Part shown: positions 154 through 12,617 of the stretch, piece after piece | Position numbering within the stretch: position 1 is the first letter of the stretch | How the letters are laid out: every line of letters begins with the position of its first letter | Origin: Verrucomicrobiota bacterium | Lineage (GTDB): Bacteria > Verrucomicrobiota > Verrucomicrobiia > Limisphaerales > Palsa-1400 | DNA: 12,617 nucleotides | NCBI GenBank assembly: GCA_049510745.1 | Contig: JBEKYR010000073.1 | Span: forward strand, 1-12,617 | Direction of reading: 5' to 3' | The notes under the pieces: generated by a model | Databases searched by the model: none | Seen by the model: the letters and a program-made list of their open reading frames with translations, nothing else | What the model was told of the DNA's origin: nothing | Translations under genes and position numbers: made by a program

Positions 154-1845
154 CTATTCGCGAACAAAGTCCGCGATTACGGCCGGCACCGTCGTGTCGA
201 AGCCGACCACGTCCAGCATGCCGCGGTCGTTCGGGTCGGCGAGGGTGAAGCCGTTGGAGGTCATGCCCACAACGACCGCCTTCGCGTCGCCGACGAACTC
301 GTCGCGATACTGGCGCAGGGCCTGGGCCGGATGAATGTTGCCCGCCCACGTCTCGCTGTCCGTGTAGGTGACAAACGCCGACACGTTCAGCTTGTTGCGG
401 GCGGCCCACACCATTGGCAGGGCGCAATCCGTGCCACCCATCGGGATGGCTTCGATGCGCTTGATAACCTCGGCCAGTCTCATGCGCGGCGAGAGGTTCA
501 CGCGGGTGATGCCCGGTTCGCCGCCGCCATGCATGCCGCCGTAACGACCCTGTGCCGGAGCCGAGAACGCGATGATCTCGCATTCCGGTTCGGTTGCAGC
601 CGTGATCAGTGCCATCGCGGCGCTGCCTTCGCGGGCCGAGATGCATGAACCCGCGATCATCGAAGCCGCCATTGAGCCGCTCACGTCCAGCGCCAGCAGC
701 ACCGGCTTGTCGCATGGTTCCACGTTCTGGAACGTCGCGTAAAACGCTTCGTCCAGAGCGTCCACCACGGCCGACACTGGCGACCACTTGAGCGCGCCCT
801 TGTCGCCATGGCCCTGGGCGTAGATTTTCTGCGCCACAAGGACCGCCAGCGGGTGGATGCGCGCACGCCTGAGCGCCGTCTCGTCACGCAGCTTGCGGAC
901 GACCAAACGCTTGGCGTCGCTGAAGGGAGCCAGCAGACCGAGGCCAGTCATCTTGCCGAGGTTGCGGATCATCGCCGTCATCGGCATGCGTTCAAGCAAG
1001 GCTTCCCACACAATGGCTTCATTGAGCCACTGCGTTGGGATGGCTTCACGCGGCAGATCGAATTCGTTAATGAGCTTCACGATTTCGCCTGCGCTCGAAG
1101 CGCGCTTGGCCTGCTCGAAGGCTTCGATGAGCTTCGGCAGTGCGCCGACCGCGCCATACTTGGCAACACGGTCTTCACCGCGCACCTTGCGCTTCACTTC
1201 ACGCTCACCTAGCGAATCCGCGCCGGCCAGCAACCAGCGGAAGACCGATTCGTGCTGGGGCGACGGAGCCTTCGGGTGGGCAAGGCGGAGCAAGTCGCCG
1301 TGAGACCAACCATCGCGCTGCTGATACTTCACCGCCTGGTGCGCGAGATCATCGGCATCGCGGTAAACATACCAGTCGCCAACTCCATTGCGCAGACCAC
1401 GGCCCCAGCCGCGCATGGCGTTCACGTATTCAGCGAAGTGGAACAGATGCGTGCCAATGCGGCAGACCTTGTTCAAGATCGCGAATGCGTGCGCCTTCGC
1501 CCGGGCGTCACCATGGGTGACGGCGAGTGCCAGGGCGAAGATGGCCGGATCATTCTTGGGCGCGCGGCCCGCATCGCTGATCTCAACGATGCGGTTGACG
1601 GCGCGCACGCCATCCGCCTTGATGCAACGGACAATCGCCTCGTGGTTCTGCTTCACCAGATCGCGTTCCGTGATGTAATACGTGCCACCCTCGGCGCCAA
1701 GGATGAGGAAACGGTCAAGCCGCGTCCAGTCATCCACTTCCCAGGAGAAGCCGCCACCGGAGTTGCGGATCTGGGTCGAACCCGGGATCGGCTGCAATTG
1801 GGGAGTGATGCGGCGATTGAACTGACGTGCGTAGTTGATAGCCAT
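154..1845 (-). CDS. rsr: Ro60 orthologue (TROVE domain plus vWA domain), 563 aa
   Basis: N-terminal NSGGGFSW..LDRFLILGAEGGTYY, KYQQRDGWSHGDLLRLAHP, vWA MIDAS DVSGSM, GGTDCALP, TDSETW, C-terminal GMLDVVGFD; SD AAGGAGG at 1851-1857; adjacent Y RNAs. Confidence 0.97.
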   Translation of the reverse strand: MAINYARQFNRRITPQLQPIPGSTQIRNSGGGFSWEVDDWTRLDRFLILGAEGGTYYITERDLVKQNHEAIVRCIKADGVRAVNRIVEISDAGRAPKNDPAIFALALAVTHGDARAKAHAFAILNKVCRIGTHLFHFAEYVNAMRGWGRGLRNGVGDWYVYRDADDLAHQAVKYQQRDGWSHGDLLRLAHPKAPSPQHESVFRWLLAGADSLGEREVKRKVRGEDRVAKYGAVGALPKLIEAFEQAKRASSAGEIVKLINEFDLPREAIPTQWLNEAIVWEALLERMPMTAMIRNLGKMTGLGLLAPFSDAKRLVVRKLRDETALRRARIHPLAVLVAQKIYAQGHGDKGALKWSPVSAVVDALDEAFYATFQNVEPCDKPVLLALDVSGSMAASMIAGSCISAREGSAAMALITAATEPECEIIAFSAPAQGRYGGMHGGGEPGITRVNLSPRMRLAEVIKRIEAIPMGGTDCALPMVWAARNKLNVSAFVTYTDSETWAGNIHPAQALRQYRDEFVGDAKAVVVGMTSNGFTLADPNDRGMLDVVGFDTTVPAVIADFVRE

Positions 1846-1904
1846 GGTGGCCTCCTTTATATGTGCGCGCCGCCAACTCCCGGCACGGGTTTTCTATCGG
1901 TTAA

Positions 1905-1973
1905 ACTGCGGACAAGTTGGTGAATGTGGGGTTGGTCATTTGAAGTGATAACCCATGTTCTTCGGCCCGCAGT
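1905..1973 (-). ncRNA. Y RNA, minimal 69 nt, no tRNA-like domain (YrlB-like)
   Basis: 5' ACUGCGGGCCGAAG...UGGGUUAUC and 3' CUUGUCCGCAGU form the terminal stem with the bulged-C Ro60 site; resembles the metazoan Y1 5' end GGUCCGAAG..GUGAGUUAUC. Confidence 0.85.
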
Positions 1974-1987
1974 CAATGAGCTTGCGA

Positions 1988-2235
1988 TTATTCGCGGAAA
2001 AAAGTGATTCCTGAGAGCGCCGTCATATCGGCCGGTGCGGAGACAACATTTCTTAAAAGCTGCGTCCAGAGCCGCATGGGCACAGGTCGTTCCGGCCCAG
2101 CTTTTCGCTGAGTTCCTAATTCCCGTGAACGAGGCGCACGCCGCGTTTCACCTGTGTTTCGGACGGGAAACCCTTGCGACGTTTGCCGGTGATTTCGAAA
2201 CTTGAGTCTTCCTGATCGTGAGCATGGTTTGACAT
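1988..2235 (-). CDS. Small SEC-C (Zn-binding) protein, recoded or pseudogenised (in-frame TAG, +1 shift)
   Basis: SD GGAGG at 2240-2244, ATG 2235: [59 protein letters not shown]. The +1 frame continues [19 protein letters not shown]. The 3' end is uncertain. Confidence 0.75.
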
Positions 2236-2265
2236 ACGGCCTCCTGGTTTGAGTGTTACGGTTGA

Positions 2266-2290
2266 TTCATCGCGGCCGCGCCGTGATGAA
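2266..2290. other. Hairpin between a Y RNA and the SEC-C ORF
   Basis: TTCATCGCGG-CCGCG-CCGTGATGAA inverted repeat. Confidence 0.5.
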
Positions 2291-2296
2291 ATTTCA

Positions 2297-2422
2297 GATG
2301 GGCAAGGGACGCCATGGAATTACTCCTTGCGGAGGCTGCTCTACCGTTGAGCTACTGCCCCTTCAAGGGGGCAGATCGGACTCGAACCGACAACCGACGA
2401 TAACCCACAACTTCGGCCCATC
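2297..2422 (-). ncRNA. yrlA: Y RNA, YrlA type (circularly permuted tRNA-like domain)
   Basis: GAUGGGCCGAAG..UGGGUUAUC / CUUGCCCAUC Ro stem; T arm GUCGG-UUCGAGU-CCGAU, loop-closed acceptor-like stem, D arm UAGCUCAACGGUAGAGC. Confidence 0.92.
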
Positions 2423-2430
2423 AAATCAAA

Positions 2431-2554
2431 AGCGGACAAGAATGCGACTGTGGAGTTGCCCAGTGTGCTGCCTTTAGACCACCGCGGAATCTTCCGCGGG
2501 GCGGAATTGAACCGCCACTGCCGGGCCCCGATAACCCACAATCTATGGCCTGCT
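2431..2554 (-). ncRNA. Y RNA, YrlA type
   Basis: AGCAGGCCAUAG..UGGGUUAUC / CUUGUCCGCU stem; T arm GGCGG-UUCAAUU-CCGCC; closed CCGCGGA/UCCGCGG stem; D-like UGGUCUAAAGGCAGCAC. Confidence 0.85.
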
Positions 2555-2563
2555 AAAGAGAAC

Positions 2564-2694
2564 CGACGGATAAGAAACGAACTGGAAATTAACGTGCTCT
2601 ACCACTGAGCTACCCCGGCATATGGAGCCGGAGGCGGGATTCGAACCCGCGTCCACGCGCTTCGTAGGCGATAACCCAATCCTGCGATCCGTCG
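2564..2694 (-). ncRNA. Y RNA, YrlA type
   Basis: CGACGGAUCGCAG..UGGGUUAUC / CUUAUCCGUCG stem (compensatory AU/AU change); T arm GCGGG-UUCGAAU-CCCGC; closed acceptor-like stem; D arm UAGCUCAGUGGUAGAGC. Confidence 0.9.
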
Positions 2695-2708
2695 AAAAGC
2701 TAAAAACA

Positions 2709-2816
2709 TAGACGGACAAGAGGCGAGGTGGAAATCCATCGGTTGCCCAATGGCGCGGGATTTGCATCCGCTCGCGGTTTCCCGCTTACGATAATCCAAA
2801 CTCAACGGCCCGTCTA
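2709..2816 (-). ncRNA. Y RNA with G55-type T arm and no D arm
   Basis: UAGACGGGCCGUUG..UGGAUUAUC / CUUGUCCGUCUA stem; GCGG-GAAA-CCGC hairpin, T-like GCGGA-UGCAAAU-CCCGC, CCAUUGG-GCAA-CCGAUGG hairpin. Confidence 0.8.
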
Positions 2817-2819
2817 AAT

Positions 2820-2896
2820 TGACGCTCCCGATGGGAATCGAACCCACGTTTCCCGGACTAAATCCGGACATTCTCTCGCGGTTGAACTACGGGAAT
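2820..2896 (-). tRNA. tRNA-like gene with UUA anticodon (ochre/amber suppressor-like, or pseudo-tRNA)
   Basis: Cloverleaf ATTCCCG/CGGGAGC, D stem GTTC/GAAT, anticodon arm TCCGG-ATTTAGT-CCGGG, T arm GTGGG-TTCGATT-CCCAT, G73, ends TCA rather than CCA. Confidence 0.7.
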
Positions 2897-2981
2897 ATCC
2901 GGCACCCTCCTGCTGAATGCAGCACGGATGTCGGACGCGGTCTGGTCCGAGACCAACCTAGGTTGCGCCTTCGGAAAGTTC

Positions 2982-3110
2982 AGATGGACAAGTGGCGTGA
3001 TCGAACGGAGGCACTCCATGCCGGGAATCGAACCCGGACCGCCAAGGCTTTCGCCACGGACGGTACGCCCTCCTTATGGTGGAGGATAAACGATCAACTT
3101 CGGCCCATCT
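2982..3110 (-). ncRNA. Y RNA with T arm and extra hairpins
   Basis: AGAUGGGCCGAAGUUGAUCGUUUAUC / CGAUCA..CUUGUCCAUCU stem; T arm CCGGG-UUCGAUU-CCCGG; additional GAAA-capped hairpin. Confidence 0.82.
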
Positions 3111-3114
3111 AAAT

Positions 3115-3190
3115 TGGTCAGGAAGTCGGGATTCGCACCCGAACCGTCGCGTTCACAACGCGGAATGCTGCTGTTACACCACAATCCTGA
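3115..3190 (-). tRNA. tRNA-His(GTG), atypical
   Basis: Anticodon loop TTGTGAA; T loop TGCGAAT; encoded CCA; A73 and no G-1:C73. Confidence 0.8.
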
Positions 3191-3197
3191 TATGAAA

Positions 3198-3273
3198 TGG
3201 AGCCCCGGGTCGGACTCGCACCGACGATTACGAGCTTACGAAACTCGCCCTGTCGCTTCTGAGGCACTGGGGC
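3198..3273 (-). tRNA. tRNA-Thr(CGT)
   Basis: CGAGT-TTCGTAA-GCTCG; GCC..GGC acceptor, U73, CCA; T loop TGCGAGT. Confidence 0.87.
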
Positions 3274-3277
3274 AAAA

Positions 3278-3355
3278 TGGTGTCCACGGCAGGAATCGCG
3301 CCTGCGACCTCCACCTTCGCGCGGTGGCGCTCTGATCTAACTGAGCTACGCGGAC
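3278..3355 (-). tRNA. tRNA-Arg(GCG)
   Basis: CCACC-GCGCGAA-GGTGG (G32, C33); T loop CGCGATT; CCA. Confidence 0.85.
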
Positions 3356-3358
3356 AAT

Positions 3359-3436
3359 TGGCATCCGTGATCGGACTCGCACCGATTAGGCCTGGCTTGA
3401 AAGACCGGCTGCTCGATCTGCTTTGCATTCACGGAC
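3359..3436 (-). tRNA. tRNA-Glu(TTC)
   Basis: Loop CTTTCAA; acceptor GTCCGTG/CACGGAT, G73, CCA; T loop TGCGAGT. Confidence 0.87.
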
Positions 3437-3440
3437 GAAA

Positions 3441-3515
3441 TGGCCCCCGAAGTTGGTATCGCGCCAACGTCTCCTCCTCTTCAGGGAGGCGCTAATCTGC
3501 CTCAGCTACTCGGGG
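3441..3515 (-). tRNA. tRNA-Phe(GAA)
   Basis: CCTCC-CTGAAGA-GGAGG; T loop CGCGATA; G73, CCA. Confidence 0.87.
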
Positions 3516-3552
3516 AAATGGCTCACTGAGCCGTAGCTTGGAGAGCGAAAAC

Positions 3553-3626
3553 TGGTCGTCCCGGCAGGTAACGCTCCTGCTTCTTCCGGTTATCGACCGG
3601 AGGCTCTGCTTTTGAGCTACGAGACG
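3553..3626 (-). tRNA. tRNA-Ile(GAT)
   Basis: TCCGG-TCGATAA-CCGGA (C33); T loop AGCGTTA; A73, CCA. Confidence 0.87.
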
Positions 3627-3772
3627 GTGGTTAATTGGGGCTTCAAGCCAAACCGCTTCGCGGGACGGAAAACGATATTCACCTTCCCGGTTGGCCGGAT
3701 TCGCATGGCGCGAAAAGGCTTGTAGCTCCTGCGAAAGAGCAATTGGCTTTGATACTGAAGAACGGTCTTCAT
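3617..3772 (-). CDS. Putative 51-aa basic small protein inside the tRNA array
   Basis: SD-like AAAGGAAAG just before ATG 3772; MKTVLQYQSQLLFRRSYKPFRAMRIRPTGKVNIVFRPAKRFGLKPQLTTVS; fills the largest gap in the array; the stop overlaps the tRNA-Ile 5' end. Confidence 0.45.
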   Translation of the reverse strand: MKTVLQYQSQLLFRRSYKPFRAMRIRPTGKVNIVFRPAKRFGLKPQLTTVS

Positions 3773-3800
3773 GGGCTTTCCTTTCGTTGAGGGTTAATAT

Positions 3801-3887
3801 TGGCGGATGGTGTAGGGATCGCACCCACGCAGCCCGCAGGCTCACTCGGTTTTCGGGACCGGGGCATTACTTCTCTGCCAACCATCC
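3801..3887 (-). tRNA. tRNA-Ser(CGA)
   Basis: Loop CCCGAAA (C33), long variable arm, GGATGGT/ACCATCC, G73, CCA; T loop TGCGATC. Confidence 0.9.
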
Positions 3888-3895
3888 GAGCAAAT

Positions 3896-3969
3896 TGGCT
3901 GCCAGACTTGGACTCGCACCAAGACAAGCGGCTTAACAGGCCGCCGTGCTACTTTGACACCACCTGGCA
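3896..3969 (-). tRNA. tRNA-Asn(GTT)
   Basis: GCGGC-CTGTTAA-GCCGC; U1-A72, G73, CCA; T loop TGCGAGT. Confidence 0.9.
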
Positions 3970-3970
3970 A

Positions 3971-4046
3971 TGGCGCTGCCGGCAGGATTCTCACCTGCAT
4001 CGATCCGCTTAGAAGACGGATGCCTGATATGTTCGGCCACGGCAGC
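3971..4046 (-). tRNA. tRNA-Arg(TCT)
   Basis: TCCGT-CTTCTAA-GCGGA; T loop TGAGAAT; G73, CCA. Confidence 0.9.
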
Positions 4047-4053
4047 ATGGAAA

Positions 4054-4129
4054 TGGTCGGAATGGCAGGATTTTCACCCGCGGCCTCCCGGTCCCAAGCC
4101 GGGTGCTCTGAAGACTGAGCTACATTCCG
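4054..4129 (-). tRNA. tRNA-Pro(TGG)
   Basis: CCCGG-CTTGGGA-CCGGG; C1-G72, A73, CCA; T loop TGAAAAT. Confidence 0.92.
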
Positions 4130-4136
4130 TGAAAAA

Positions 4137-4212
4137 TGGCGGACCCGAAGGGAGTTGCACCCTCAACCCTCCCGCAGACAACGGGGCGCTCTGCTGATTG
4201 AGCTACGAGTCC
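4137..4212 (-). tRNA. tRNA-Asp(GTC)
   Basis: Loop TTGTCTG (U37); GGA..TCC acceptor, G73, CCA; T loop TGCAACT. Confidence 0.87.
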
Positions 4213-4216
4213 GAAA

Positions 4217-4304
4217 TGGTGGGAAGTGCTGGTAACGCTCCAGTCGTCGCTTCCAGCTTGTTTGAAGACACCGGTTTTACAGACCGGCAGCCGGATCACT
4301 CCCT
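4217..4304 (-). tRNA. tRNA-Tyr(GTA), D arm essentially absent
   Basis: CCGGT-CTGTAAA-ACCGG; long variable arm; only about 10 nt between the acceptor and anticodon stems; T loop AGCGTTA; A73, CCA. Confidence 0.78.
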
Positions 4305-4309
4305 AAAAT

Positions 4310-4387
4310 TGGTAGCGGGGGCAGGAATCACACCTGCCTCAAACGGTTTATGAGACCGTCCTCTGTGCTTTAGTCGAGTTCCCCGCA
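4310..4387 (-). tRNA. tRNA-Met(CAT), initiator-like 1:72 mismatch
   Basis: ACGGT-CTCATAA-ACCGT; acceptor TGCGGGG/CCCCGCT with U1:U72; T loop TGTGATT; CCA. Confidence 0.85.
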
Positions 4388-4393
4388 GTGAAA

Positions 4394-4468
4394 TGGTGGA
4401 GTCGATGGGTAACGCTCCCATATCAACTTGCTTGCAAGGCAAGTGCATTACTTGTCTGCCACGACCCC
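4394..4468 (-). tRNA. tRNA-Ala(TGC)
   Basis: CTTGC-CTTGCAA-GCAAG; G3:U70 and A73 identity elements kept; T loop AGCGTTA; CCA. Confidence 0.92.
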
Positions 4469-4474
4469 GGAAAA

Positions 4475-4546
4475 TGGCAGGCTGCCTCCGTGCCGCCCGG
4501 AGTACGCTGAGTTTTGGAGACTCGGCCGCGTGCTGACGCTCAGCCT
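4475..4546 (-). tRNA. tRNA-Trp(CCA), shortened D arm
   Basis: Loop CTCCAAA; G73, CCA; D arm GCGT-CAGC-ACGC; T loop GGCGGCA. Confidence 0.8.
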
Positions 4547-4555
4547 GTGAATGAA

Positions 4556-4632
4556 TGGTGCGGCTGCCGGGAGTTGCGCCCGGACTTCCTTCGTGGCGGG
4601 GAGGCATTCTGCAAAGGTTAAATTACAACCGC
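4556..4632 (-). tRNA. tRNA-Gly(GCC)
   Basis: Loop CCGCCAC (C33); GCG..CGC acceptor; A73; T loop CGCAACT; CCA. Confidence 0.85.
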
Positions 4633-4643
4633 GGAAATTAAGA

Positions 4644-4671
4644 GGGCCGGGAGCGTTCAGGTTCCCGGCCC
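4644..4671. other. Strong hairpin just 5' of the first tRNA
   Basis: GGGCCGGGA...TCCCGGCCC inverted repeat with no long U-tract. Confidence 0.6.
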
Positions 4672-4981
4672 ATGCCATTTCAACAAAGAACAAACACCTC
4701 TTGGCGATCTACTCGATCCCAACCCGCGGTTTCACGGCGGCTGTTTCGGTGTTTAGGGGCACACCTCCTGCGAAGCCCTTAATATGTAAATCTAAAATTC
4801 GTTTCGTTCGTCTTGGTGACGCTGTCTTCTGGTCGTGGGCAGACCCCACCGGTGAGGCTTCTCTGCTCGTCCTCGCCAAAAACAATTTGTCGCCAAAAGA
4901 CATCACCTGGATGTCGCTCTATTTTTGCTCACAGATCGTTCGTCTTTCGTTATCTGCCATTCTCGTCTCAGTCATACAGGG

Positions 4982-5018
4982 AAAATAAAAAACCCTGCTT
5001 ACACGCGGTAAGCAGGGT
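4982..5018 (-). terminator. Intrinsic terminator of a transcription attenuator
   Basis: Minus strand ACCCTGCTTAC-CGCGT-GTAAGCAGGG-TTTTTTATTTT. Confidence 0.92.
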
Positions 5019-5040
5019 GAATAAATTCTCTTTCGATTCG

Positions 5041-5211
5041 TTACCTGCTTACAGCCAGTCTATCCAAATTGCCTTCGGGTTGCTCTCCAATAGGCACCAA
5101 GGATAGTCCAAGGCCAAACACATGGCCTTGGGTGTACCGGCTATGACGTGTCGCTTTCGCGACCGCCATTGTCGGCCAACTCGTGGCTGATATGCTTAAG
5201 CAAGTCTTCAT
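5041..5211 (-). CDS. Putative attenuator leader peptide, 56 aa
   Basis: MKTCLSISATSWPTMAVAKATRHSRYTQGHVFGLGLSLVPIGEQPEGNLDRLAVSR*; TAA immediately follows the antiterminator; no clear SD. Confidence 0.65.
   Translation of the reverse strand: MKTCLSISATSWPTMAVAKATRHSRYTQGHVFGLGLSLVPIGEQPEGNLDRLAVSR
5044..5053 (-). promoter_or_regulatory. Antiterminator strand
   Basis: TGTAAGCAGG is an exact copy of part of the terminator 3' arm, so it can pair with the 5' arm CCTGCTTAC (5008-5016); it lies in the last codons of the leader ORF. Confidence 0.8.
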
Positions 5212-5223
5212 CGAACTTAAAGA

Positions 5224-5283
5224 CGTATAGCACATGCCACTGGTTACATGCAAGAATTAATTTGAAAATTTTACAAATATTTT
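5224..5283 (-). promoter_or_regulatory. Candidate sigma70-type promoter with AT-rich UP element
   Basis: TTGCAT (5253-5248), 18 nt, then TATACG (5229-5224) preceded by TG-C; AT-rich tract 5254-5283; the -10 is imperfect. Confidence 0.45.
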
Positions 5284-5370
5284 GCGGGCGGGGCAGGTCC
5301 AACTGGAATTCACATATTCGGATTGGTTGATGCGAACGTCATTTATCCCAAGGTTTGGGAGGAAAGCAAC

Positions 5371-5973
5371 TCAGGCGACCGACTCCTTCCAGCGAGACCG
5401 CTGGGAAGGAGGCAAGTAGCCGAACAGGAGATCCATGCTTTCTTGGAAGGTGGTCTCAGGTTCGGCTTGCTGGCAATAGCGGTGGTACACTTCGCAGGCA
5501 TGGCGGCGCAGTTGTTCAACGGGCGCGGCACTCAAGCCGGCGTGGGCGAAGGTGCCGATGAGCATATCCAACAAAGGAACGAACTCGGCGTCGTCGAGGG
5601 GCTTTTGATCGTTGTAGCTGAACCAGTGATCGAGTTGGATTTTCCCGAACCGCAGCAAGGTGGTTTCCGTGTCTGTGGCCGAGTGGTTCTCGGTTTTGGG
5701 CGGAGGAGGGTGGATGATGGCAGTCTCCGTGGCACCGTGCAAAGGCGGCAGTTCTTCGGCGGGAAGGCGTAGCGTGATGCTTCGCGCCTGGCCCGGCACG
5801 CGAGAAATCAGCCCGCGTCGCTCCAGGGTCAAAATCATTTGATGCACGCTCGGAGGTGTGACCTGGAAGAATTGCATCATCTCCGCCTCCGCCGGCGGAC
5901 GCCCGTGCAGAGTGATGTAGTGGTTTATGTAGGCCAGGAACTGGCCTTGCCGCGAGGTATAGGGCGGTTTCAT
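5371..5973 (-). CDS. LexA-type winged-helix DNA-binding protein with unrelated C-terminal domain
   Basis: YTSRQGQFLAYINHY..GRPPAEAEM..F.VTPPSVHQMILTLERRGLISR.PGQARSI resembles the LexA N-terminal domain; no S24 peptidase domain is evident. Confidence 0.8.
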   Translation of the reverse strand: MKPPYTSRQGQFLAYINHYITLHGRPPAEAEMMQFFQVTPPSVHQMILTLERRGLISRVPGQARSITLRLPAEELPPLHGATETAIIHPPPPKTENHSATDTETTLLRFGKIQLDHWFSYNDQKPLDDAEFVPLLDMLIGTFAHAGLSAAPVEQLRRHACEVYHRYCQQAEPETTFQESMDLLFGYLPPSQRSRWKESVA

Positions 5974-6755
5974 AGAATGTGCGTCCGCTTCTGCGACCGC
6001 GTGTTCTTCCGCAACTGTTGCAAACGTTCCAGATTGTTGGCAGGCAGGTCGTAAGCAGCAGGGGCAAGCTGGACTGCTTTCTCCAAGACCTTCTGTGCCT
6101 TGTCGAACCGGCCCAATTCTGCCAGTCCCCAGCCATAGTCATTGAGCACCGAGCAGTTGTTGGGGTCATTGGCGACGGCCCTTTCCAGCCACGGCAAGGC
6201 TTCCTGTTTTTTCCCGGCGCGGCACAAAGCCCAACCCAGGCCAATAATAAACTCCTGCTCGCCCGGGCTGGCTGCCAAGGCGGCCTCATACAGGCGGCAG
6301 GTGTTGGCGGCATCGCCCGCGTCCATCAATGACTGGCCAGCTTTGTCGATAATTTTAATCCAATCCGTGGTCTTTGGTGAAAGCTGCGTCAATTGGAGCA
6401 GCAACCTCATGCCTTCCGCCTTGCTGCCGTAGCGATGTTCATAACAGCCAACTGTCAGCAAGGCAGGAGCATATTCCGGGTCAATGGCCAAGGCGGCAAA
6501 TCCTGGGGGCCACTCGGGCGCAGGCAATCGCTCGCCCTGAAGGCTGGCCACCGCTGCCCCAAACAGGCTGTCACTTATGCTTACATCATAAGCCCACTCC
6601 GCCGCCGCCCGGCGCTTCGAGGCGGGTTTTCGCGCGTAGTCGGCTCGGAGGGCTGAAAGTTCCGGGTCGCGGGCCAGCAGTTCGGCGAAGCATTGCATCG
6701 TGAGGATGGCTGGCTTGGTTCTGGCGGTTTTTTTGGCCATGCTTGGGCTCCTCAT
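5970..6755 (-). CDS. Tetratricopeptide repeat protein
   Basis: TPR-like helices (LGWALCRAGKKQEALPWLERAVANDP; YGWGLAELGRFDKAQKVLEKAVQLAP); 4-nt overlaps with neighbours. Confidence 0.85.
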   Translation of the reverse strand: MRSPSMAKKTARTKPAILTMQCFAELLARDPELSALRADYARKPASKRRAAAEWAYDVSISDSLFGAAVASLQGERLPAPEWPPGFAALAIDPEYAPALLTVGCYEHRYGSKAEGMRLLLQLTQLSPKTTDWIKIIDKAGQSLMDAGDAANTCRLYEAALAASPGEQEFIIGLGWALCRAGKKQEALPWLERAVANDPNNCSVLNDYGWGLAELGRFDKAQKVLEKAVQLAPAAYDLPANNLERLQQLRKNTRSQKRTHIL

Positions 6756-7322: not shown

Positions 7323-7847
7323 TCAGGTTCCGGGCGTGGCGTCTGGCGGCAGCAGGCCCATCTGTTTGGCCAGTCCCAGCGAGACCACGAATCCATTCGA
7401 CAACTGCACATCCGTGAATGTGTCCACAAAAGCGCGTCGGCATAGGCCAGGTTCAGAGTGCTGGTGCAAGCGCAGCGTTCGTTCGATCTCGGTGGCTTTG
7501 CCCCCAACCGTTGTCTTTTTCACCTGGAAAAAATCGCAAATCGTGTCGAAAGTCAGATGCGCCGGCTGGCTTGGGTCAAAGAGGAAATTCATCCGTGCGA
7601 TAACGTGCGTCACGGAGGCTGCCCAGACGGTCGGGTTGCCCCGGCGGCAATCCAGACGTTTTGACCGGCAGACACGCTTCCAGAGATCGAGTGCGAAGCC
7701 CGTCAACTCCGGATCCAAATGTGCCGCGCCGAAACTCGTGATGCTGGCTGACACTTCGCAAAAGCGCTCCTGTTTTTCCTCTGCCACCCCAGCACTGTGT
7801 TTTGATTCCGCACCGATGCGGGACGAGTCGTTTTGGATTTCATTCAT
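7323..7847 (-). CDS. DUF6398-like protein
   Basis: WAASVTHVIARMNFLFDPSQPAHLTFDTICDFFQVKKTTVGGKATEI motif recognised from memory; ATG 7847 avoids overlap. Confidence 0.7.
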   Translation of the reverse strand: MNEIQNDSSRIGAESKHSAGVAEEKQERFCEVSASITSFGAAHLDPELTGFALDLWKRVCRSKRLDCRRGNPTVWAASVTHVIARMNFLFDPSQPAHLTFDTICDFFQVKKTTVGGKATEIERTLRLHQHSEPGLCRRAFVDTFTDVQLSNGFVVSLGLAKQMGLLPPDATPGT

Positions 7848-7912
7848 GAGATTGATCCTACCAGTCTGCCGGGCGGGTTCAAGCCAGTGATGCCAATTCA
7901 GCCATCTATTGT

Positions 7913-8521
7913 TTAATTGCGGGCGATTTCCTCCGCGAGCGGACGCATCCAAGCGGACAATTTGGGAGCGAGCAACGCCAAATCCTTCTTGGTCTTCGGA
8001 TCCAGATCCCGTTTCAGCCGTGCCACATGTTGTGACATCTCTGGGCTGCCGTGCAGATGGCGCAATGCCTGAATCACCAGGCCCGCCCGTCGGCCCGCTC
8101 CGATCAGATTCCGCGGCGCGGCTCGCCGAAAGTCCAGTATCAACTTCCCCAGCGATATTCGGCGAGGCACACCGTCTGTCAAAATGACGATTTTGGCCGG
8201 AACTTGCTCAGATAACCCGAGCGCATTTGCCGCGTAGGCCCCGGAGAACTGCCATTGCGCGTGGCTGCCGTTCATCAATGCACGCACCGTGGCCATGATG
8301 TCCGGTGCCGTCTGGCCGATGATCGGGTGTTGACGAGGCAAATCGTAAAGGCCCCGCCGAATCCGGCGAATCCTGCCGGCTTTGGCCAGCCGATGCAAGG
8401 CCACCCCCACCGCCGAACGGGCTCCCAAATCCAGGAAATCGCCCGGCGAAAACACGCTGCCTTGCCGGCTTCTGCGAATTCGGCTCAAAACCCTCTTATC
8501 CATGGTTTGCATCGTTTTCAT
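7913..8521 (-). CDS. DUF6088 family / AbiEi-like type IV antitoxin
   Basis: VFSPGDFLDLGARSAVGVALHRL..G.IRRIRRGLY and SGAYAANALGLSEQVPAKIVILTDG motifs. Confidence 0.85.
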   Translation of the reverse strand: MKTMQTMDKRVLSRIRRSRQGSVFSPGDFLDLGARSAVGVALHRLAKAGRIRRIRRGLYDLPRQHPIIGQTAPDIMATVRALMNGSHAQWQFSGAYAANALGLSEQVPAKIVILTDGVPRRISLGKLILDFRRAAPRNLIGAGRRAGLVIQALRHLHGSPEMSQHVARLKRDLDPKTKKDLALLAPKLSAWMRPLAEEIARN

Positions 8522-9311: not shown

Positions 9312-9695
9312 ATGAAAACTGCCCCACCACGGGTTTTGTTGAAGACGAGCACCGACGAATTGTTTCTGCCGTCCCGAATCGTTTATCACATGTGGGACGA
9401 AAAGGAACTGGTGACCAGGCTGCGTCAATTGCGATGCATGGCGTTCGACCGGCCAAGGGGACGCTGGACCTGGAACTTCGAGCACGAAGCCAAGGCGATG
9501 GGCTTCCCGGCGATTTACGAATCCGGGCCGGCGGCACAGCAAGGGGTGATGCCTCAAGACCGGTTCAACCTTTTCCATCACCGCGTGTCCGGCGAGTCGG
9601 GCGTATCGGTGCGTGCGGCGACCATGCCCGCTAGCCTCGATAGTGCTCTTACCTGCCGGGCACCCAGCAATCCGGCGGCGGAAGAGCTGGATTGA
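9312..9695 (+). pseudogene. Hypothetical protein fragment (N-terminal part)
   Basis: MKTAPPRVLLKTSTDELFLPSRIVYH..WTWNFEHEAK looks protein-like for about 75 aa, then degenerates and runs into the convergent protease gene. Confidence 0.45.
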
Positions 9696-12617
9696 TATGG
9701 TACCCGTTGGTCTGCCATATCAGGTTTGCGTTCGTATAGTAGGCTGCCGGGACTGGACAGGGGGGGATTGGCCAGGGCCCGGTGGTTACATAAGCGTTTG
9801 AGTAAGCGAGGTACTCGCTCGTCGAGATGGTGTAGTCCGCATTGAGGTCTGCCGGATGGGGTGTGGCGTTCGTGGCGGAAAAGCCCAGAGCGCGATAGTA
9901 GCACAGCGGTAGGCCAATGGCCTTGGTATCTGTCAGGGTTATAACATTGGAGGAGGGGGTGATGGAGAAGATGGCACGCCAGGAGGCGAGGTTTGTGGAG
10001 CATTGAACCCAATAGGTGCTACCTTGGACGCAGTCGAGGACGAGTTGGACAGCCCCGTTTGCTAGGTGTTGGGGCGCGCGGAAGCATGCGGTAGGTGGTG
10101 TGTCGTTGTCGGTTATGGTGACTGTTGTTGTTGTCGGACTTCCCAAGGCGGCACCGCTCGCGCCGCTCAAGCTCACCGTGAAGTACTCGTTCCCTGAGTA
10201 ACTGCCCTTGTCGATGATCAGCACGTCCACGTACTTGTCCGCCGCGTCCCCATCCACCCAACTCAGCGTCCCGGATACAGCGGTGTAGTCCGAGCCGGCG
10301 CCAGCGCTCCCATCGGCCGTGGCATAATTGACACCAGCAGCACCATACGACCCACCGGTGCGATTGACGTAAATCCGAATGCTCCCCCCGTTCTCGTTTA
10401 CGGAGTAGGCGGAAGATGCGAATTGCAAGTTACCCCGTGAGGGGGGGGTATCGTTATCAATAATCGTCACCGTCGTTGTTATCGGACTGCCCAGCGAGGC
10501 GCCACTTGCCCCGCTCAAGTTGAGCGTGAAGTACTCGTTCCCCGAGTAACTGCCCTCGTCAATAATCGGCACGTCGGCGTACTTGTCCGTCGCATCCCCA
10601 TCCGCCCAACTCAGCGTCCCGGATACTGCGGTGTAGTCCGAGCCGGCTCCGGCGCTCCCATCGGCCGTGGCATAGCTGACACCAGCAGCACCGTAGGAGC
10701 CACCCGTGCGGCTGACGTGAATCCGAATACTGCCCCCGTTCTCGTTCACGGAGTAGGTGGAGGAGGCGAATTGCAAGTTGCCGGGCGAAAAGAAGGCTTG
10801 CAGGAATTCGTCCCAGTGCGTCGCCGCCGTGAAAGCCAGGTTCGCGGGTGTCGCGCTTTGGTTAATGTAATTATTGTAGGTGTTATAGGTGTTGAAACAG
10901 TTAGCGTCCTGCGGTGATCGCGGAAAGAAGATGCTCAGTCCGTAAGTGCCTTTGTCGAACCAGAATCCGTTATTCTGGGTGGCGCCTGAGTCGTTGGCGT
11001 GTTGTTCCGACACTAGGAATGGGCCGCCAGCGTTCCCAATGGCGGCAATAACGGAATTGGCAGCGGTTTGGACTCCTGTGACCGGCACAACCGCCACAAG
11101 TTCCTGGCAAAGGTCTCGCACATCCAAAAACATATTGCCTGGGTCCATAGTCCAACTCTCATCGTGGCAGAAAGCAAACTTCTGAGCATGATTCTGCGCG
11201 GTGGCTATATTGGCGCGATAAACCGCCGTGTTTTGGATGAGTGCCGAAGCCAATGTGTCTACCGCACTGGAAATCGTCGCCGCCTGTCCGGGGCGGGTGA
11301 CGGCGATCGTGCGTCCACCGGAGATTGCGGTAAAGTAGGTATTGGCGATGGCTTGGGCCAAAGCCTGAGAGGTTGTCGCAGGCGTTATGGAGGCAACGTA
11401 GGTCTCCCACGAGGGGTCGATGGCCCAACCTTCATTCTCTGAAGCGACCAAGTAGTCGACTGAGTTGCGAAGCTCGTAGTTTACTTCAATCATCTGCATT
11501 AAGCATGCATCCAAATGAAGCACCTCAAGATTGCGCCCCAGTAATGTCTTCACATGGGCTGCAGCGTTGCCGAGGTCGGCAACAGAAAGGTAGTCTCCGG
11601 TATCATCCCAGCAGATCCCAGTGGGCACCGGTGGCAAGTTTGTTTCGCCGACAACCGTTGGGGAAATTCCACCTCCATGGTCGAAGATGACTAATGCGTA
11701 GTGATCACCGCTTATTCCGGATCGAGAGATAACAAAGTCGGTAAAAGTGTTGATTGTGTTAATCGACCCGGTGTCGAACTCAGAACCACTCAGCCCGATT
11801 TGTGCTGGCGTCCAACGGTCAACCCCATCGGTGTAGTCATCCATGTTGCCATCCTGCCTAATTCTGAACACACGGTCCAGCCCAGCGCCCGATCTATCCA
11901 CCAACATAAAAGCTTGGATGTTGTCGTTCAGGTTGGCAGCCACGGTGCTGAACTTGGCCGGTATGTACTGGTCTAGGTCGGCCCCGCCGCCGGACCCGTT
12001 ACACATGTAGTACATTACGACCCACGTAGGCGTCTTTAGGGCAGTAAACTGGTTGAGTTGAGTGAGACTGTCCCATGGCGAACCGCTGCCAATGGTCTGC
12101 CAAAGGCCCCAGGCAACGTCGTAGGACCCCAGTGATCCAGAAGGGACATTATAGTAACGCGTCTGCGTTGAGTATCCCGACGGGACCGTCTTGTACACGT
12201 CGTTAGCGGGGTCGCTCAGCCATGTGGAAGTGCCGTTCTGTCTAATTGAACATCCTAGGCCGATAGATATGCTCGATGAATTAGGGTTGTAAATTTGAAA
12301 ATACACCGTGAGCTGCCCCCCTGCGGTGATCGTCGCTGGTGAGACATAGCAGTTGGCAGCGACGAGGGTTGGCGTTCCCGGCACAACCGTGATGGTCTTG
12401 GTGTAGGTGTTGTCCGATTCATTACTCTCGCTGATCGCGCCCGTTGAATCGGTGATTATTTCCAACGTATGCGTGCCCGCACTGAGTGAACCGACGGAAT
12501 AGCCGGTCACCGTCGTGTAGTAATTCGCGTTCAACGGCGGATCCGTATACCAGGAATTATTCAACACCCCATCGACGTACAACGCGGTGTAGAACCGTGC
12601 CGCCGTGGCCGCCGTGC
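9649..12617 (-). CDS. Extracellular clostripain-family (C11) cysteine peptidase with Ig/CARDB-like region and two Calx-beta domains; 5' end outside the window
   Basis: WVVMYYM, YALVIFDHGGG (catalytic His), LHLDACLMQMIEV (catalytic Cys), YLVASE, GLSIFFP; ESNESDN CARDB-like motif; the frame is open to the window edge. Confidence 0.9.
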   Translation of the reverse strand, partial: TAATAARFYTALYVDGVLNNSWYTDPPLNANYYTTVTGYSVGSLSAGTHTLEIITDSTGAISESNESDNTYTKTITVVPGTPTLVAANCYVSPATITAGGQLTVYFQIYNPNSSSISIGLGCSIRQNGTSTWLSDPANDVYKTVPSGYSTQTRYYNVPSGSLGSYDVAWGLWQTIGSGSPWDSLTQLNQFTALKTPTWVVMYYMCNGSGGGADLDQYIPAKFSTVAANLNDNIQAFMLVDRSGAGLDRVFRIRQDGNMDDYTDGVDRWTPAQIGLSGSEFDTGSINTINTFTDFVISRSGISGDHYALVIFDHGGGISPTVVGETNLPPVPTGICWDDTGDYLSVADLGNAAAHVKTLLGRNLEVLHLDACLMQMIEVNYELRNSVDYLVASENEGWAIDPSWETYVASITPATTSQALAQAIANTYFTAISGGRTIAVTRPGQAATISSAVDTLASALIQNTAVYRANIATAQNHAQKFAFCHDESWTMDPGNMFLDVRDLCQELVAVVPVTGVQTAANSVIAAIGNAGGPFLVSEQHANDSGATQNNGFWFDKGTYGLSIFFPRSPQDANCFNTYNTYNNYINQSATPANLAFTAATHWDEFLQAFFSPGNLQFASSTYSVNENGGSIRIHVSRTGGSYGAAGVSYATADGSAGAGSDYTAVSGTLSWADGDATDKYADVPIIDEGSYSGNEYFTLNLSGASGASLGSPITTTVTIIDNDTPPSRGNLQFASSAYSVNENGGSIRIYVNRTGGSYGAAGVNYATADGSAGAGSDYTAVSGTLSWVDGDAADKYVDVLIIDKGSYSGNEYFTVSLSGASGAALGSPTTTTVTITDNDTPPTACFRAPQHLANGAVQLVLDCVQGSTYWVQCSTNLASWRAIFSITPSSNVITLTDTKAIGLPLCYYRALGFSATNATPHPADLNADYTISTSEYLAYSNAYVTTGPWPIPPCPVPAAYYTNANLIWQTNGYHINPALPPPDCWVPGR
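10090..10782 (-). repeat. Tandem intragenic duplication of a Calx-beta domain (348-nt period)
   Basis: GNLQFASS.YSVNENGGSIRI...DNDTPP occurs twice (starting at 10782 and 10434) with high nucleotide similarity. Confidence 0.9.

Follow-up and report, generated by a model that had tools for sequence, protein, structure and literature searches.

An array of tRNA genes with a G55 elbow beside an rsr locus in a Verrucomicrobiota genome

The stretch of DNA analysed here (the window) is the whole of contig JBEKYR010000073.1 (C73; 12,617 nt), which makes up 12.6 kb of the 5.6-Mb draft genome (94% complete) of a Verrucomicrobiota bacterium of the order Limisphaerales (assembly GCA_049510745.1). On its minus strand, between positions 4632 and 3115, our own cloverleaf parse finds an array of 16 transfer RNA (tRNA) genes within 1.5 kb, and on the same strand downstream of these lie genes for Y-RNA-like RNAs and the gene rsr, which codes for a Ro60-like RNA-binding protein. 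A preliminary description of this DNA had proposed that all the array tRNAs have a rewired elbow. Few nucleotides in biology are as strongly conserved as U55 (pseudouridine 55) and G18, by which the tRNA elbow is defined. This structure is touched by the ribosome, RNase P and T-boxes, and also by modification enzymes and certain toxins. The 16 units are given below in the direction of the minus strand, with the programs or models that detect them; R1 is our own covariance model, built from an alignment of 80 related array tRNAs.

4556..4632, minus strand: tRNA-Gly(GCC)-like; T loop CGCAACT; D loop AACCTTTGCA, without AG; C33; one anticodon-stem mismatch; R1 51.9 bits
4475..4546, minus strand: tRNA-Trp(CCA)-like; T loop GGCGGCA (G54 G55 C56 .. 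G58); R1 15.6 bits, E 0.008
4394..4468, minus strand: tRNA-Ala(TGC); T loop AGCGTTA (A54 G55 C56 .. U58); D loop ACAAGTA; G3:U70; ARAGORN, Rfam, R1
4310..4387, minus strand: tRNA-Met(CAT); T loop TGTGATT (G55, U56); D loop ACTAAAGCAC; 1:72 mismatch; Rfam 23.2 bits (below gathering score); R1 47.7 bits
4217..4303, minus strand: tRNA-Tyr(GTA)-like; T loop AGCGTTA; long variable arm; no standard D arm; R1 9.6 bits, E 0.44
4137..4212, minus strand: tRNA-Asp(GTC); T loop TGCAACT; D loop AATCAGCA; ARAGORN, Rfam, R1
4054..4129, minus strand: tRNA-Pro(TGG); T loop TGAAAAT (G55 A56); D loop AGTCTTCA (U18 U19); ARAGORN, Rfam
3971..4046, minus strand: tRNA-Arg(TCT); T loop TGAGAAT (G55 A56); D loop AACATATC(A), read as A18 U19 A20; ARAGORN, Rfam
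3896..3969, minus strand: tRNA-Asn(GTT); T loop TGCGAGT; D loop CAAAGTA; ARAGORN, Rfam, R1
3801..3887, minus strand: tRNA-Ser(CGA); T loop TGCGATC; D loop AGAAGTA; long variable arm; ARAGORN, Rfam, R1
3553..3626, minus strand: tRNA-Ile(GAT); T loop AGCGTTA; D loop AAAAGCA; Rfam; R1 74.2 bits, the best R1 match in the window
3441..3515, minus strand: tRNA-Phe(GAA); T loop CGCGATA (C54 G55); D loop AGGCAGAT; ARAGORN, Rfam, R1
3359..3436, minus strand: tRNA-Glu(TTC); T loop TGCGAGT; D loop with AG; R1 36.7 bits; called by neither ARAGORN nor Rfam
3278..3355, minus strand: tRNA-Arg(GCG); T loop CGCGATT; D loop AGTTAGATCA (A18 G19 A20); ARAGORN, Rfam
3198..3273, minus strand: tRNA-Thr(CGT); T loop TGCGAGT; D loop AGAAGCGA; ARAGORN, Rfam
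3115..3189, minus strand: tRNA-His(GTG); T loop TGCGAAT; D loop AACAGCA; two acceptor-stem mismatches (own parse); ARAGORN; Rfam 34.5 bits; R1 52.7 bits

The T loops listed in the preliminary description are all present on the minus strand, and every one of the 16 has G55; none has TTC or U55. Likewise, none of the 16 units has GG at positions 18-19, and it is A18 (or Y18) that accompanies G55 instead. At the expected site of the GG dinucleotide, 12 of the 16 D loops have AG, in agreement with what had been described, while the Gly and Tyr-like units have D loops without an AG-type dinucleotide. C56 is retained in 13/16, and the two tRNAs with A56, tRNA-Arg(TCT) and tRNA-Pro, have AT and TT, respectively, in their D loops. 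Classified by loop type, 12 of the window T loops fit YGNRA, three are AGCGU and one is GGCGG. All 16 units encode their CCA ends, and 14 fold into a clean cloverleaf (7-bp acceptor stem, D arm, 5-bp anticodon stem with 7-nt loop, 5-bp T stem with 7-nt loop), the D arms of the Trp-like and Tyr-like units deviating from the standard form. Identity elements are retained, including G3:U70 in tRNA-Ala, A20 in tRNA-Arg and the discriminator bases. The earlier statement that stems, CCA ends and identity elements are kept needs correction for the Gly copy, which looks partly degenerate, and for tRNA-His with its mismatched acceptor stem.

Standard tRNA finders perform poorly on this array. ARAGORN detects 10 of the 16 units, and the Rfam tRNA model (RF00005) reports 11 above its gathering score of 29 bits and one below it, leaving four unreported. 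These low scores arise because the models expect GG and TTC, which are absent here, and the consequence for annotation is that five or six of the 16 genes escape. With R1, 14 of the units are recovered at E<=6e-9, the exceptions being the Trp-like (E 0.008) and Tyr-like (E 0.44) units.

Related arrays were sought by a DNA search of 401 genomes of the phylum, from which 20-kb stretches around the matches were retrieved (L numbers denote loci). Homologous arrays are present in eight other genomes of the same class, with up to 34 genes; relatives have 27-34. Across these same-class relatives and the contigs of the window genome, our cloverleaf scan finds G55 in 202 of 209 array tRNAs, and the T loops fall largely into the classes TGCRA (118), AGCRU (23), CGCRA (21) and GGCRG (15). 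Five loci (L134, L108, L152, L146 and L153) carry syntenic orthologues of the window array. The Trp-like unit, which combines a compact D arm with an extended anticodon stem, is conserved in L134, L108, L152 and on another contig of the same genome (C74), with compensatory changes in the acceptor, T and anticodon stems; the Tyr-like unit is conserved in L134, L152 and C74, with compensatory changes in the acceptor stem. We considered these two units as spacers or junk and rejected the idea, given their conservation with compensatory changes in three to four orthologous arrays. The Gly orthologues in L134, L108 and L152 carry AG in their D loops, unlike the Gly unit of the window.

For a wider sample, public collections were scanned for a pattern of two neighbouring G55 T arms, which occurs in at least 132 stretches of genome contigs and at least 133 of viral contigs, and 80 loci were retrieved from each. 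Three or more G55 tRNAs are found in 40 of the genome loci and in 47 of the viral loci, while 21 of the genome loci contain no tRNA and are chance matches. Positions 18 and 19 were assigned within the admissible D-loop registers or by Infernal, and the relation between 18 and 55 was judged by contingency tables, A:G not being a standard pair. In the same-class set, tRNAs with G55 and C56 have AG in 165 of 189 cases and GG in four, while seven of the eight T55 tRNAs have GG. Among the unique tRNAs of the genome loci, T55 goes with GG 146 times and with AG once, and G55 goes with AG 263 times and with GG 19 times (Fisher p 4e-92); the corresponding counts for the viral loci are 202 and 4, and 300 and 27 (Fisher p 4e-110). 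The association holds in 37 of the 38 anticodon classes that have both states, and it is not built into the sample because the pattern used to collect the loci ignores the D loop. Some tRNA-Ala genes of the relatives pair G55 with GG.

The neighbouring pair, 19:56, behaves as the preliminary description had supposed from the A56 tRNAs and their U-containing D loops. Fifteen G55 tRNAs lack C56, and in 14 of them an admissible position 19 offers a base able to pair with position 56 (U for A56, C or U for G56, A or G for U56). Orthologous tRNA-Arg(TCT) genes alternate between A56 with AU, G56 with AC and C56 with AG, as do tRNA-Arg(TCG) genes, and the register is fixed in these because A20, the arginine identity base, directly follows the 18-19 pair. 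A covariation check across homologous arrays had been suggested, and in an Infernal alignment of the 150 best matches the 18:55 combinations are A:G (140), U:G (5), C:G (4) and G:U (1), and those at 19:56 are G:C (143), U:A (4), G:U (1) and unpaired (2). Within the T loop, positions 54:58 are U:A (87), C:A (24), A:U (19), C:C (9) or G:G (6); here too there is covariation, with A:U in Ile, Ala and Lys tRNAs and G:G in Trp, Asp, Ser and Val tRNAs. Over 22 cloverleaf pairs, the same 150 tRNAs have standard pairs in 98.5% of cells, compared to 59.8% in shuffles, and changes on both sides are seen at 21 of the 22. As read from these alignments, the swap is a co-varying one and not decay: G18:U55 is exchanged for A18:G55 and the Watson-Crick pair at 19:56 is kept. 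The selected A18:G55 elbow of the preliminary description is therefore strongly supported, by covariation in the array, in its orthologues and in hundreds of array tRNAs of other phyla and viral contigs, and by the match to the UGNRA T-loop described below.

The remainder of the host genome has conventional tRNAs. Outside the array contigs, 46 of 47 well-formed tRNAs called by ARAGORN have both TTC and GG, so the possibility raised at the outset, that housekeeping tRNAs share G55, does not apply. The one exception is a stand-alone tRNA-Glu(CTC) at C34:35893-35967 (L033), with a TGCGATT T loop and an AG D loop. Our own whole-genome cloverleaf scan yields about 25 chance cloverleaves per 5.6 Mb at a score of 48, and matches were trusted only at scores of 53 or more, or inside arrays; on this basis, credible G55 tRNAs elsewhere in the genome are confined to the short contigs C73, C74, C75 and C80, plus a tRNA-Val(TAC) on C21. 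The latter (C21:31275-31348) has the T loop GGCAGAA and is near-identical to copies on C75 and C80. Both stand-alone genes, Glu(CTC) and Val(TAC), may have escaped from an array or been domesticated. Taken together, C73, C74 and C75 have G55 tRNAs for all 20 amino acids. The housekeeping set comprises 46 canonical tRNAs for 19 amino acids; tRNA-Ile is not among the ARAGORN calls, probably due to unassembled rRNA operons in the draft. The host also encodes TruB.

Two neighbouring G55 T arms, used as a search pattern, occur in 10 of the 401 genomes of the phylum (0/401 for the reversed control pattern), and the distribution is therefore patchy. Among the matches listed from the public collections, arrays made up entirely of G55 tRNAs are found in metagenome-assembled genomes of Verrucomicrobiota (Verrucomicrobiaceae, Opitutus, Prosthecobacter, Limisphaerales and Akkermansiaceae), arrays mixing G55 and T55 occur in Planctomycetota, Myxococcota, Gemmatimonadaceae, Pyrinomonadaceae, Cyanobacteria and Deinococcales, and viral contigs carry both kinds. 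One viral record of 275 kb, which has terminal repeats and is rated complete, has G55 in 28/28 array tRNAs, and other viral arrays have it in 32/33, 30/30, 29/31, 17/17 and 16/16. When the array was compared by distant-mode blastn with 72,556 plasmid records and 50,697 phage records, the matches were generic ones to single tRNAs, with no close relative among them.

The base inserted in the T loop of tRNAs is G18, which makes contact with position 55. T-loop motifs are also found in other RNAs, and in the flavin mononucleotide (FMN) and cobalamin riboswitches they are of the YGNRA type (UGNRA 88.7%, CGNRA 10.9%), with almost exclusively an adenosine inserted between loop positions 4 and 5; tRNAs have UUCRA loops, and loops of a GGAAG type are found in rRNA (bioRxiv 10.1101/2022.12.26.521914). 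The TGCRA and CGCRA loops of the arrays match the riboswitch motif, and an adenosine occupies the site of G18. Since G18 normally inserts and contacts 55, A18 with G55 would represent the riboswitch solution placed in a tRNA. In riboswitches the motif is a tertiary dock, whereas here it replaces UUCRA in complete tRNA sets, and the AGCRU class, in which 54:58 is swapped to A:U (23/209), is not described for the riboswitch motif in the accessible text of that preprint.

Other features of the window are the following.

3617..3772, minus strand: basic open reading frame (ORF) of 51 amino acids inside the array; its stop codon overlaps the 5' end of tRNA-Ile
2978..3111, minus strand: Y-RNA-like RNA; canonical UUCGAUU T loop in the tRNA-like domain; RF01053 46.8 bits (gathering score 80)
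2821..2897, minus strand: tRNA-like module (anticodon position tta); canonical TTCGATT T loop; no CCA; ARAGORN, Rfam
2564-2678 and 2335-2398, minus strand: two YrlA-like permuted tRNA-like modules; UUCGA T loops, GG D loops; RF02553 44.5 and 35.5 bits (gathering score 69)
154..1845, minus strand: rsr (Ro60-like RNA-binding protein, 563 amino acids); TROVE 3.5e-46, 158.7 bits; vWA_Ro60 2.1e-60, 203.9 bits; both above Pfam cut-offs
7913-8521 (region 7323-8521), minus strand: AbiEi antitoxin-like gene; PADLOC 4e-58

The Y-RNA-like and YrlA-like mimics occupy 1905-3111 (minus strand), within 1.3 kb between the array and rsr and in the same orientation. The rsr product also matches the NCBIfam Rsr model (1.3e-150), at 502 bits against a cut-off of 900. 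Neither the position of the array upstream of the Y-RNA-like genes and rsr nor the wide occurrence of the design had been part of the preliminary description. The 51-amino-acid ORF has tblastn matches at the same position in six other Verrucomicrobial arrays (54-76% identity), and four of five strain variants in RNA-library contigs fall at third codon positions; it has no family match in NCBIfam or PADLOC searches. In the AbiEi region, the gene is followed by one for a DUF6398 protein and not by the usual AbiEii nucleotidyltransferase. The gene at 9649-12582 (minus strand) codes for a large protein that looks secreted, contains CARDB, clostripain (C11) and two Calx-beta domains, and has no apparent relation to the array.

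Around the long G55 arrays of the relatives, a set of genes recurs that includes a divergent LysR, HNH_4, a FliA-like sigma factor, two unknowns, an AAA ATPase and RtcB. A Pfam search of the window proteins found no HNH protein. HNH_4 adjoins the array on C75 and in L064, L065, L066 and L068, and RtcB is found in L066, L067, L068 and on C75, where the HNH gene and an RtcB fragment lie behind the array. A TROVE gene is embedded in the array at three relative loci, and one locus carries RlaP. Of five viral records whose arrays are uniformly G55, two carry RtcB beside the array and two a TROVE gene. On C75 (L032), a HipA kinase with a helix-turn-helix (HTH) partner lies upstream of the array at 531-2334, and C74 (L031) has an N-terminal fragment of a bacterial polynucleotide kinase-phosphatase (Pnkp) and a metallophosphatase gene inside the array (2601-3008 and 9904-10650).

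Traces of the array are present in environmental data. Sequence words of the array are shared by 24 public runs, comprising 18 peat, wetland or soil metagenomes and six RNA libraries. Contigs from four metatranscriptome runs (four studies; peat, wetland and permafrost) cover rsr and the array at 93-99% identity, and some bridge tRNA junctions, for example at 3672-3974 and 4036-4242. This coverage fits a polycistronic transcript, and proves neither transcription nor maturation. The stretch 5209-6500 has next to no cover in the four RNA libraries, which proves nothing and does not serve as a silent control. A sigma-70 promoter scan of 1800-5500 gave no sites. Upstream of the array is one further feature:

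4985..5215, minus strand: stretch of about 220 nt with RNA-library cover, ending in a strong, terminator-like 11-bp hairpin plus T run at 5018-4992

It has no Rfam match and is possibly a separate small RNA; a TTGCAT..TATACG promoter-like pair is seen close by, near 5255-5222.

Judged by conservation and covariation, the array tRNAs are shown to be real, evolutionarily maintained genes, and the array to be a short member of a group of horizontally spread arrays that travel with RNA-repair genes. In these genes G18:U55 is replaced by A18:G55, the 19:56 stacking pair stays Watson-Crick, and the T loop becomes (U/C)GCRA, AGCRU or GGCRG, the UGNRA type of loop, which in the FMN and cobalamin riboswitches takes an intercalating adenosine. 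In the mechanism we propose, the tRNAs would still fold into the L shape, and would be excised from a polycistronic transcript, charged and used as a second set for translation. With lower confidence, the selected property would be insensitivity to a reader of the canonical U54-U55 T loop, because one and the same change, at a universal position, is found in every tRNA of the set, and the likeliest reader may be a T-loop-directed ribotoxin or a nuclease of defence or takeover. The set would act with Rsr/Y RNA, RtcB and Pnkp as a back-up against tRNA damage, and G55 would also free it from TruB. The tRNAs may thereby evade elbow-reading nucleases, a possibility supported by the RNA-repair neighbourhood and by a published toxin whose cleavage site in the T loop lies between the conserved T and the pseudouridine (passages of a review, PMC9086364). 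On balance, and with moderate confidence, we favour the view that this is a maintained second tRNA set with an alternative elbow, selected for insensitivity to readers of the U54-U55 T loop. More speculatively, and with considerable doubt, the G55/A18 tRNAs could form a distinct, complete and orthogonal class in phages (including the 275-kb jumbo phage) and RNA-repair islands, invisible to a nuclease, or some other factor, that disables all canonical tRNAs at U54-U55, so that translation continues on the second set while an attacker, or the element itself, destroys the first.

Several observations weigh against the favoured view. The Trp-like and Tyr-like units are far from a standard cloverleaf and the Gly unit looks damaged. 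The Y-RNA-like mimics adjoining the array keep the canonical elbow (UUCGA with GG). No gene for a T-loop-directed nuclease was found beside the arrays, and a PADLOC search of 23 neighbouring proteins gave AbiEi and weak matches. Many arrays outside the Verrucomicrobiota mix G55 and T55, which fits a resistance of the whole set less well, and as the loci beyond the phylum were chosen by a pattern of two G55 T arms, their counts are not the share of G55 in arrays generally. Relatedness inflates the covariation and pairing statistics, which show maintenance and not the number of events. The A18:G55 geometry is inferred by analogy between sequences and not from a structure. Finally, the RNA-library contigs show neither mature ends nor strand, and DNA carry-over is possible.

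Other explanations for the swap can be set against these data. The elbow might serve self-sufficient folding: A18:G55 would be stable without TruB (which is also a tRNA chaperone), 5-methyluridine 54 (m5U54) or other core modifications, so that 16-40 extra tRNAs would be functional at once under stress or phage infection. Independence from pseudouridine 55, as put forward in the preliminary description, follows from chemistry, since pseudouridine cannot be formed from G, and TruB is available in the host for the host's own tRNAs. The A54, C54 and G54 variants would also avoid formation of m5U54, UGNRA T-loops function unmodified in riboswitches (bioRxiv 10.1101/2022.12.26.521914), and known arrays of this kind are silent and then strongly induced by stress (PMC8421152). 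Yet canonical tRNAs of phages and arrays cope with U55 (20 of the 21 parsed in the Nostoc operon discussed below, for example), and the link to Rsr, RtcB, Pnkp and HNH is explained no better than by the damage model; we regard it as rather unlikely to be the main cause. An even less probable explanation is near-neutral inheritance, in which an isosteric A18:G55 arose in an ancestral mobile array and spread by duplication, anticodon switching and horizontal transfer with no advantage specific to G55. The T-loop subclasses do follow isoacceptors across distant arrays (AGCGTTA in Ile-GAT and Ala; GGCAG in Trp, Asp and Ser; CGC in Thr and Phe), mixed arrays exist, and the distribution in the phylum is sporadic. 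Against this, the array tRNAs keep isoacceptor-specific acceptor and T stems like those of canonical tRNAs (array Pro shares CGGAATG/CATTCCG with the canonical tRNA-Pro in L038), which argues against descent by duplication from one founder. The swap is seen again in 37 of 38 anticodon classes, entire arrays of 28-34 genes have nothing but G55, and to our knowledge U55 is otherwise near-universal. Our best guess at the order of the reasons for the swap is insensitivity to a T-loop reader, then modification-independent folding, then neutral inheritance.

The remaining two explanations deny the array a role in translation. The units could be tRNA-shaped decoys, sponges or ligands, for instance of ribotoxins, of decay directed by Rsr/Y RNA or of regulators of the repair operon, as the array adjoins the Y-RNA-like mimics and rsr in the same orientation, the Trp-like, Tyr-like and Gly units are aberrant, and the idea of a sponge has been raised for similar arrays (PMC8421152). 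Anticodon loops, identity elements, CCA ends and coverage of 20 amino acids are all maintained, however, none of which a decoy would need, and the true mimics close by have another architecture, permuted and without anticodon arms, so this explanation is highly improbable. Decaying pseudogenes or an artefact of the tRNA finder would account for the low or absent ARAGORN and Rfam scores of five or six units and for the damaged Gly copy, but are contradicted by the comparison with orthologous arrays, conserved across genomes, by the counts at 18:55 and 19:56, and by the pairing test over the cloverleaf; we give this reading almost no credence. As whole tRNA sets on a different, co-varying elbow, the arrays of the window, its relatives and many viral contigs would provide a natural second solution to the L shape, borrowing a riboswitch-type T-loop, and mobile arrays and phage tRNA sets may counter conflicts over the body of the tRNA, and not only over its anticodon loop. 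Natural, functional-looking variants are now at hand for testing position 55 and its modification.

Animal mitochondrial tRNAs and tRNA-Pyl are without G18G19 and T54-psi55-C56. They occur as single species or as reduced organellar sets, and their elbows are loosened, whereas the window array belongs to a full set with a tight, co-varying elbow that differs by one defined substitution. The neighbourhood recalls the rsr-yrlA-rtcBA operon (Chen et al. 2014, PMC4201824), the rsr gene of the window being preceded on the same strand by tRNA-like, Y-RNA-like genes, and a further likeness is the presence of RtcB nearby in relatives and on C75. Ro60 and Y RNAs occur in phages as well. In Salmonella YrlA, the equivalent of U55 is pseudouridylated by TruB (PMC4201824). 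The window differs from that operon in having a full tRNA array fused upstream, and its YrlA-like mimics keep U55 while the array tRNAs do not; the Y-RNA likeness depends on matches below the Rfam gathering scores.

The closest parallel is with the known long tRNA arrays (L-arrays), which are horizontally spread, linked to HNH and RtcB, and found in Anabaena and other phyla including Verrucomicrobia; their silence is broken by translational stress (PMC8421152). The window array shares with the array on plasmid delta of Nostoc PCC 7120 (Santamaria-Gomez et al. 2021, PMC8421152) the dense supernumerary tRNA genes on one strand, the short spacers and the sporadic spread that points to horizontal transfer, given the pattern in 10/401 genomes, other phyla and viral contigs. 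Nostoc-type L-arrays are linked to HNH, RtcB and other RNA-processing genes, and in relatives of the window array HNH and RtcB stand beside the relatives' own arrays; with only 16 genes, no HNH of its own, and rsr and Y-RNA-like genes downstream, the window array is unlike the Nostoc operon, and it falls short of the 20 genes or more by which 'array units' have been defined (PMC4758250). In the plasmid delta operon, 20 of 21 parsed tRNAs have TTC and GG, as opposed to 16/16 with G55 in the window. The last gene of that operon, a tRNA-Ile(GAU) at 834-908 (minus strand) of NC_003273 (L340), is missed by ARAGORN; G55 is present in its T loop (GGCAGTA) and AG in its D loop. The operonic tRNA-Ile-GAU was reported to be detected and aminoacylated, with aberrant gel migration (PMC8421152), and if this is the same gene, one G55 tRNA has already been shown to be charged.

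The main text of PMC8421152 has no mention of G18, U55, the T-loop or the elbow, nor do the array surveys of Tran 2015 and Morgado 2018 (PMC5966550) mention T-loop, T loop or U55, and no report of an A18/G55 swap was found in the literature searched, which excludes most subscription journals. Phage tRNA clusters can be large, are found on phage genomes and mobile elements, and often include HNH genes (Morgado & Vicente, PMC5966550), and the likeness extends to viral contigs that carry arrays of the same G55 design. By these comparisons, the array belongs to a known kind, the long tRNA arrays, and what is new is its elbow.

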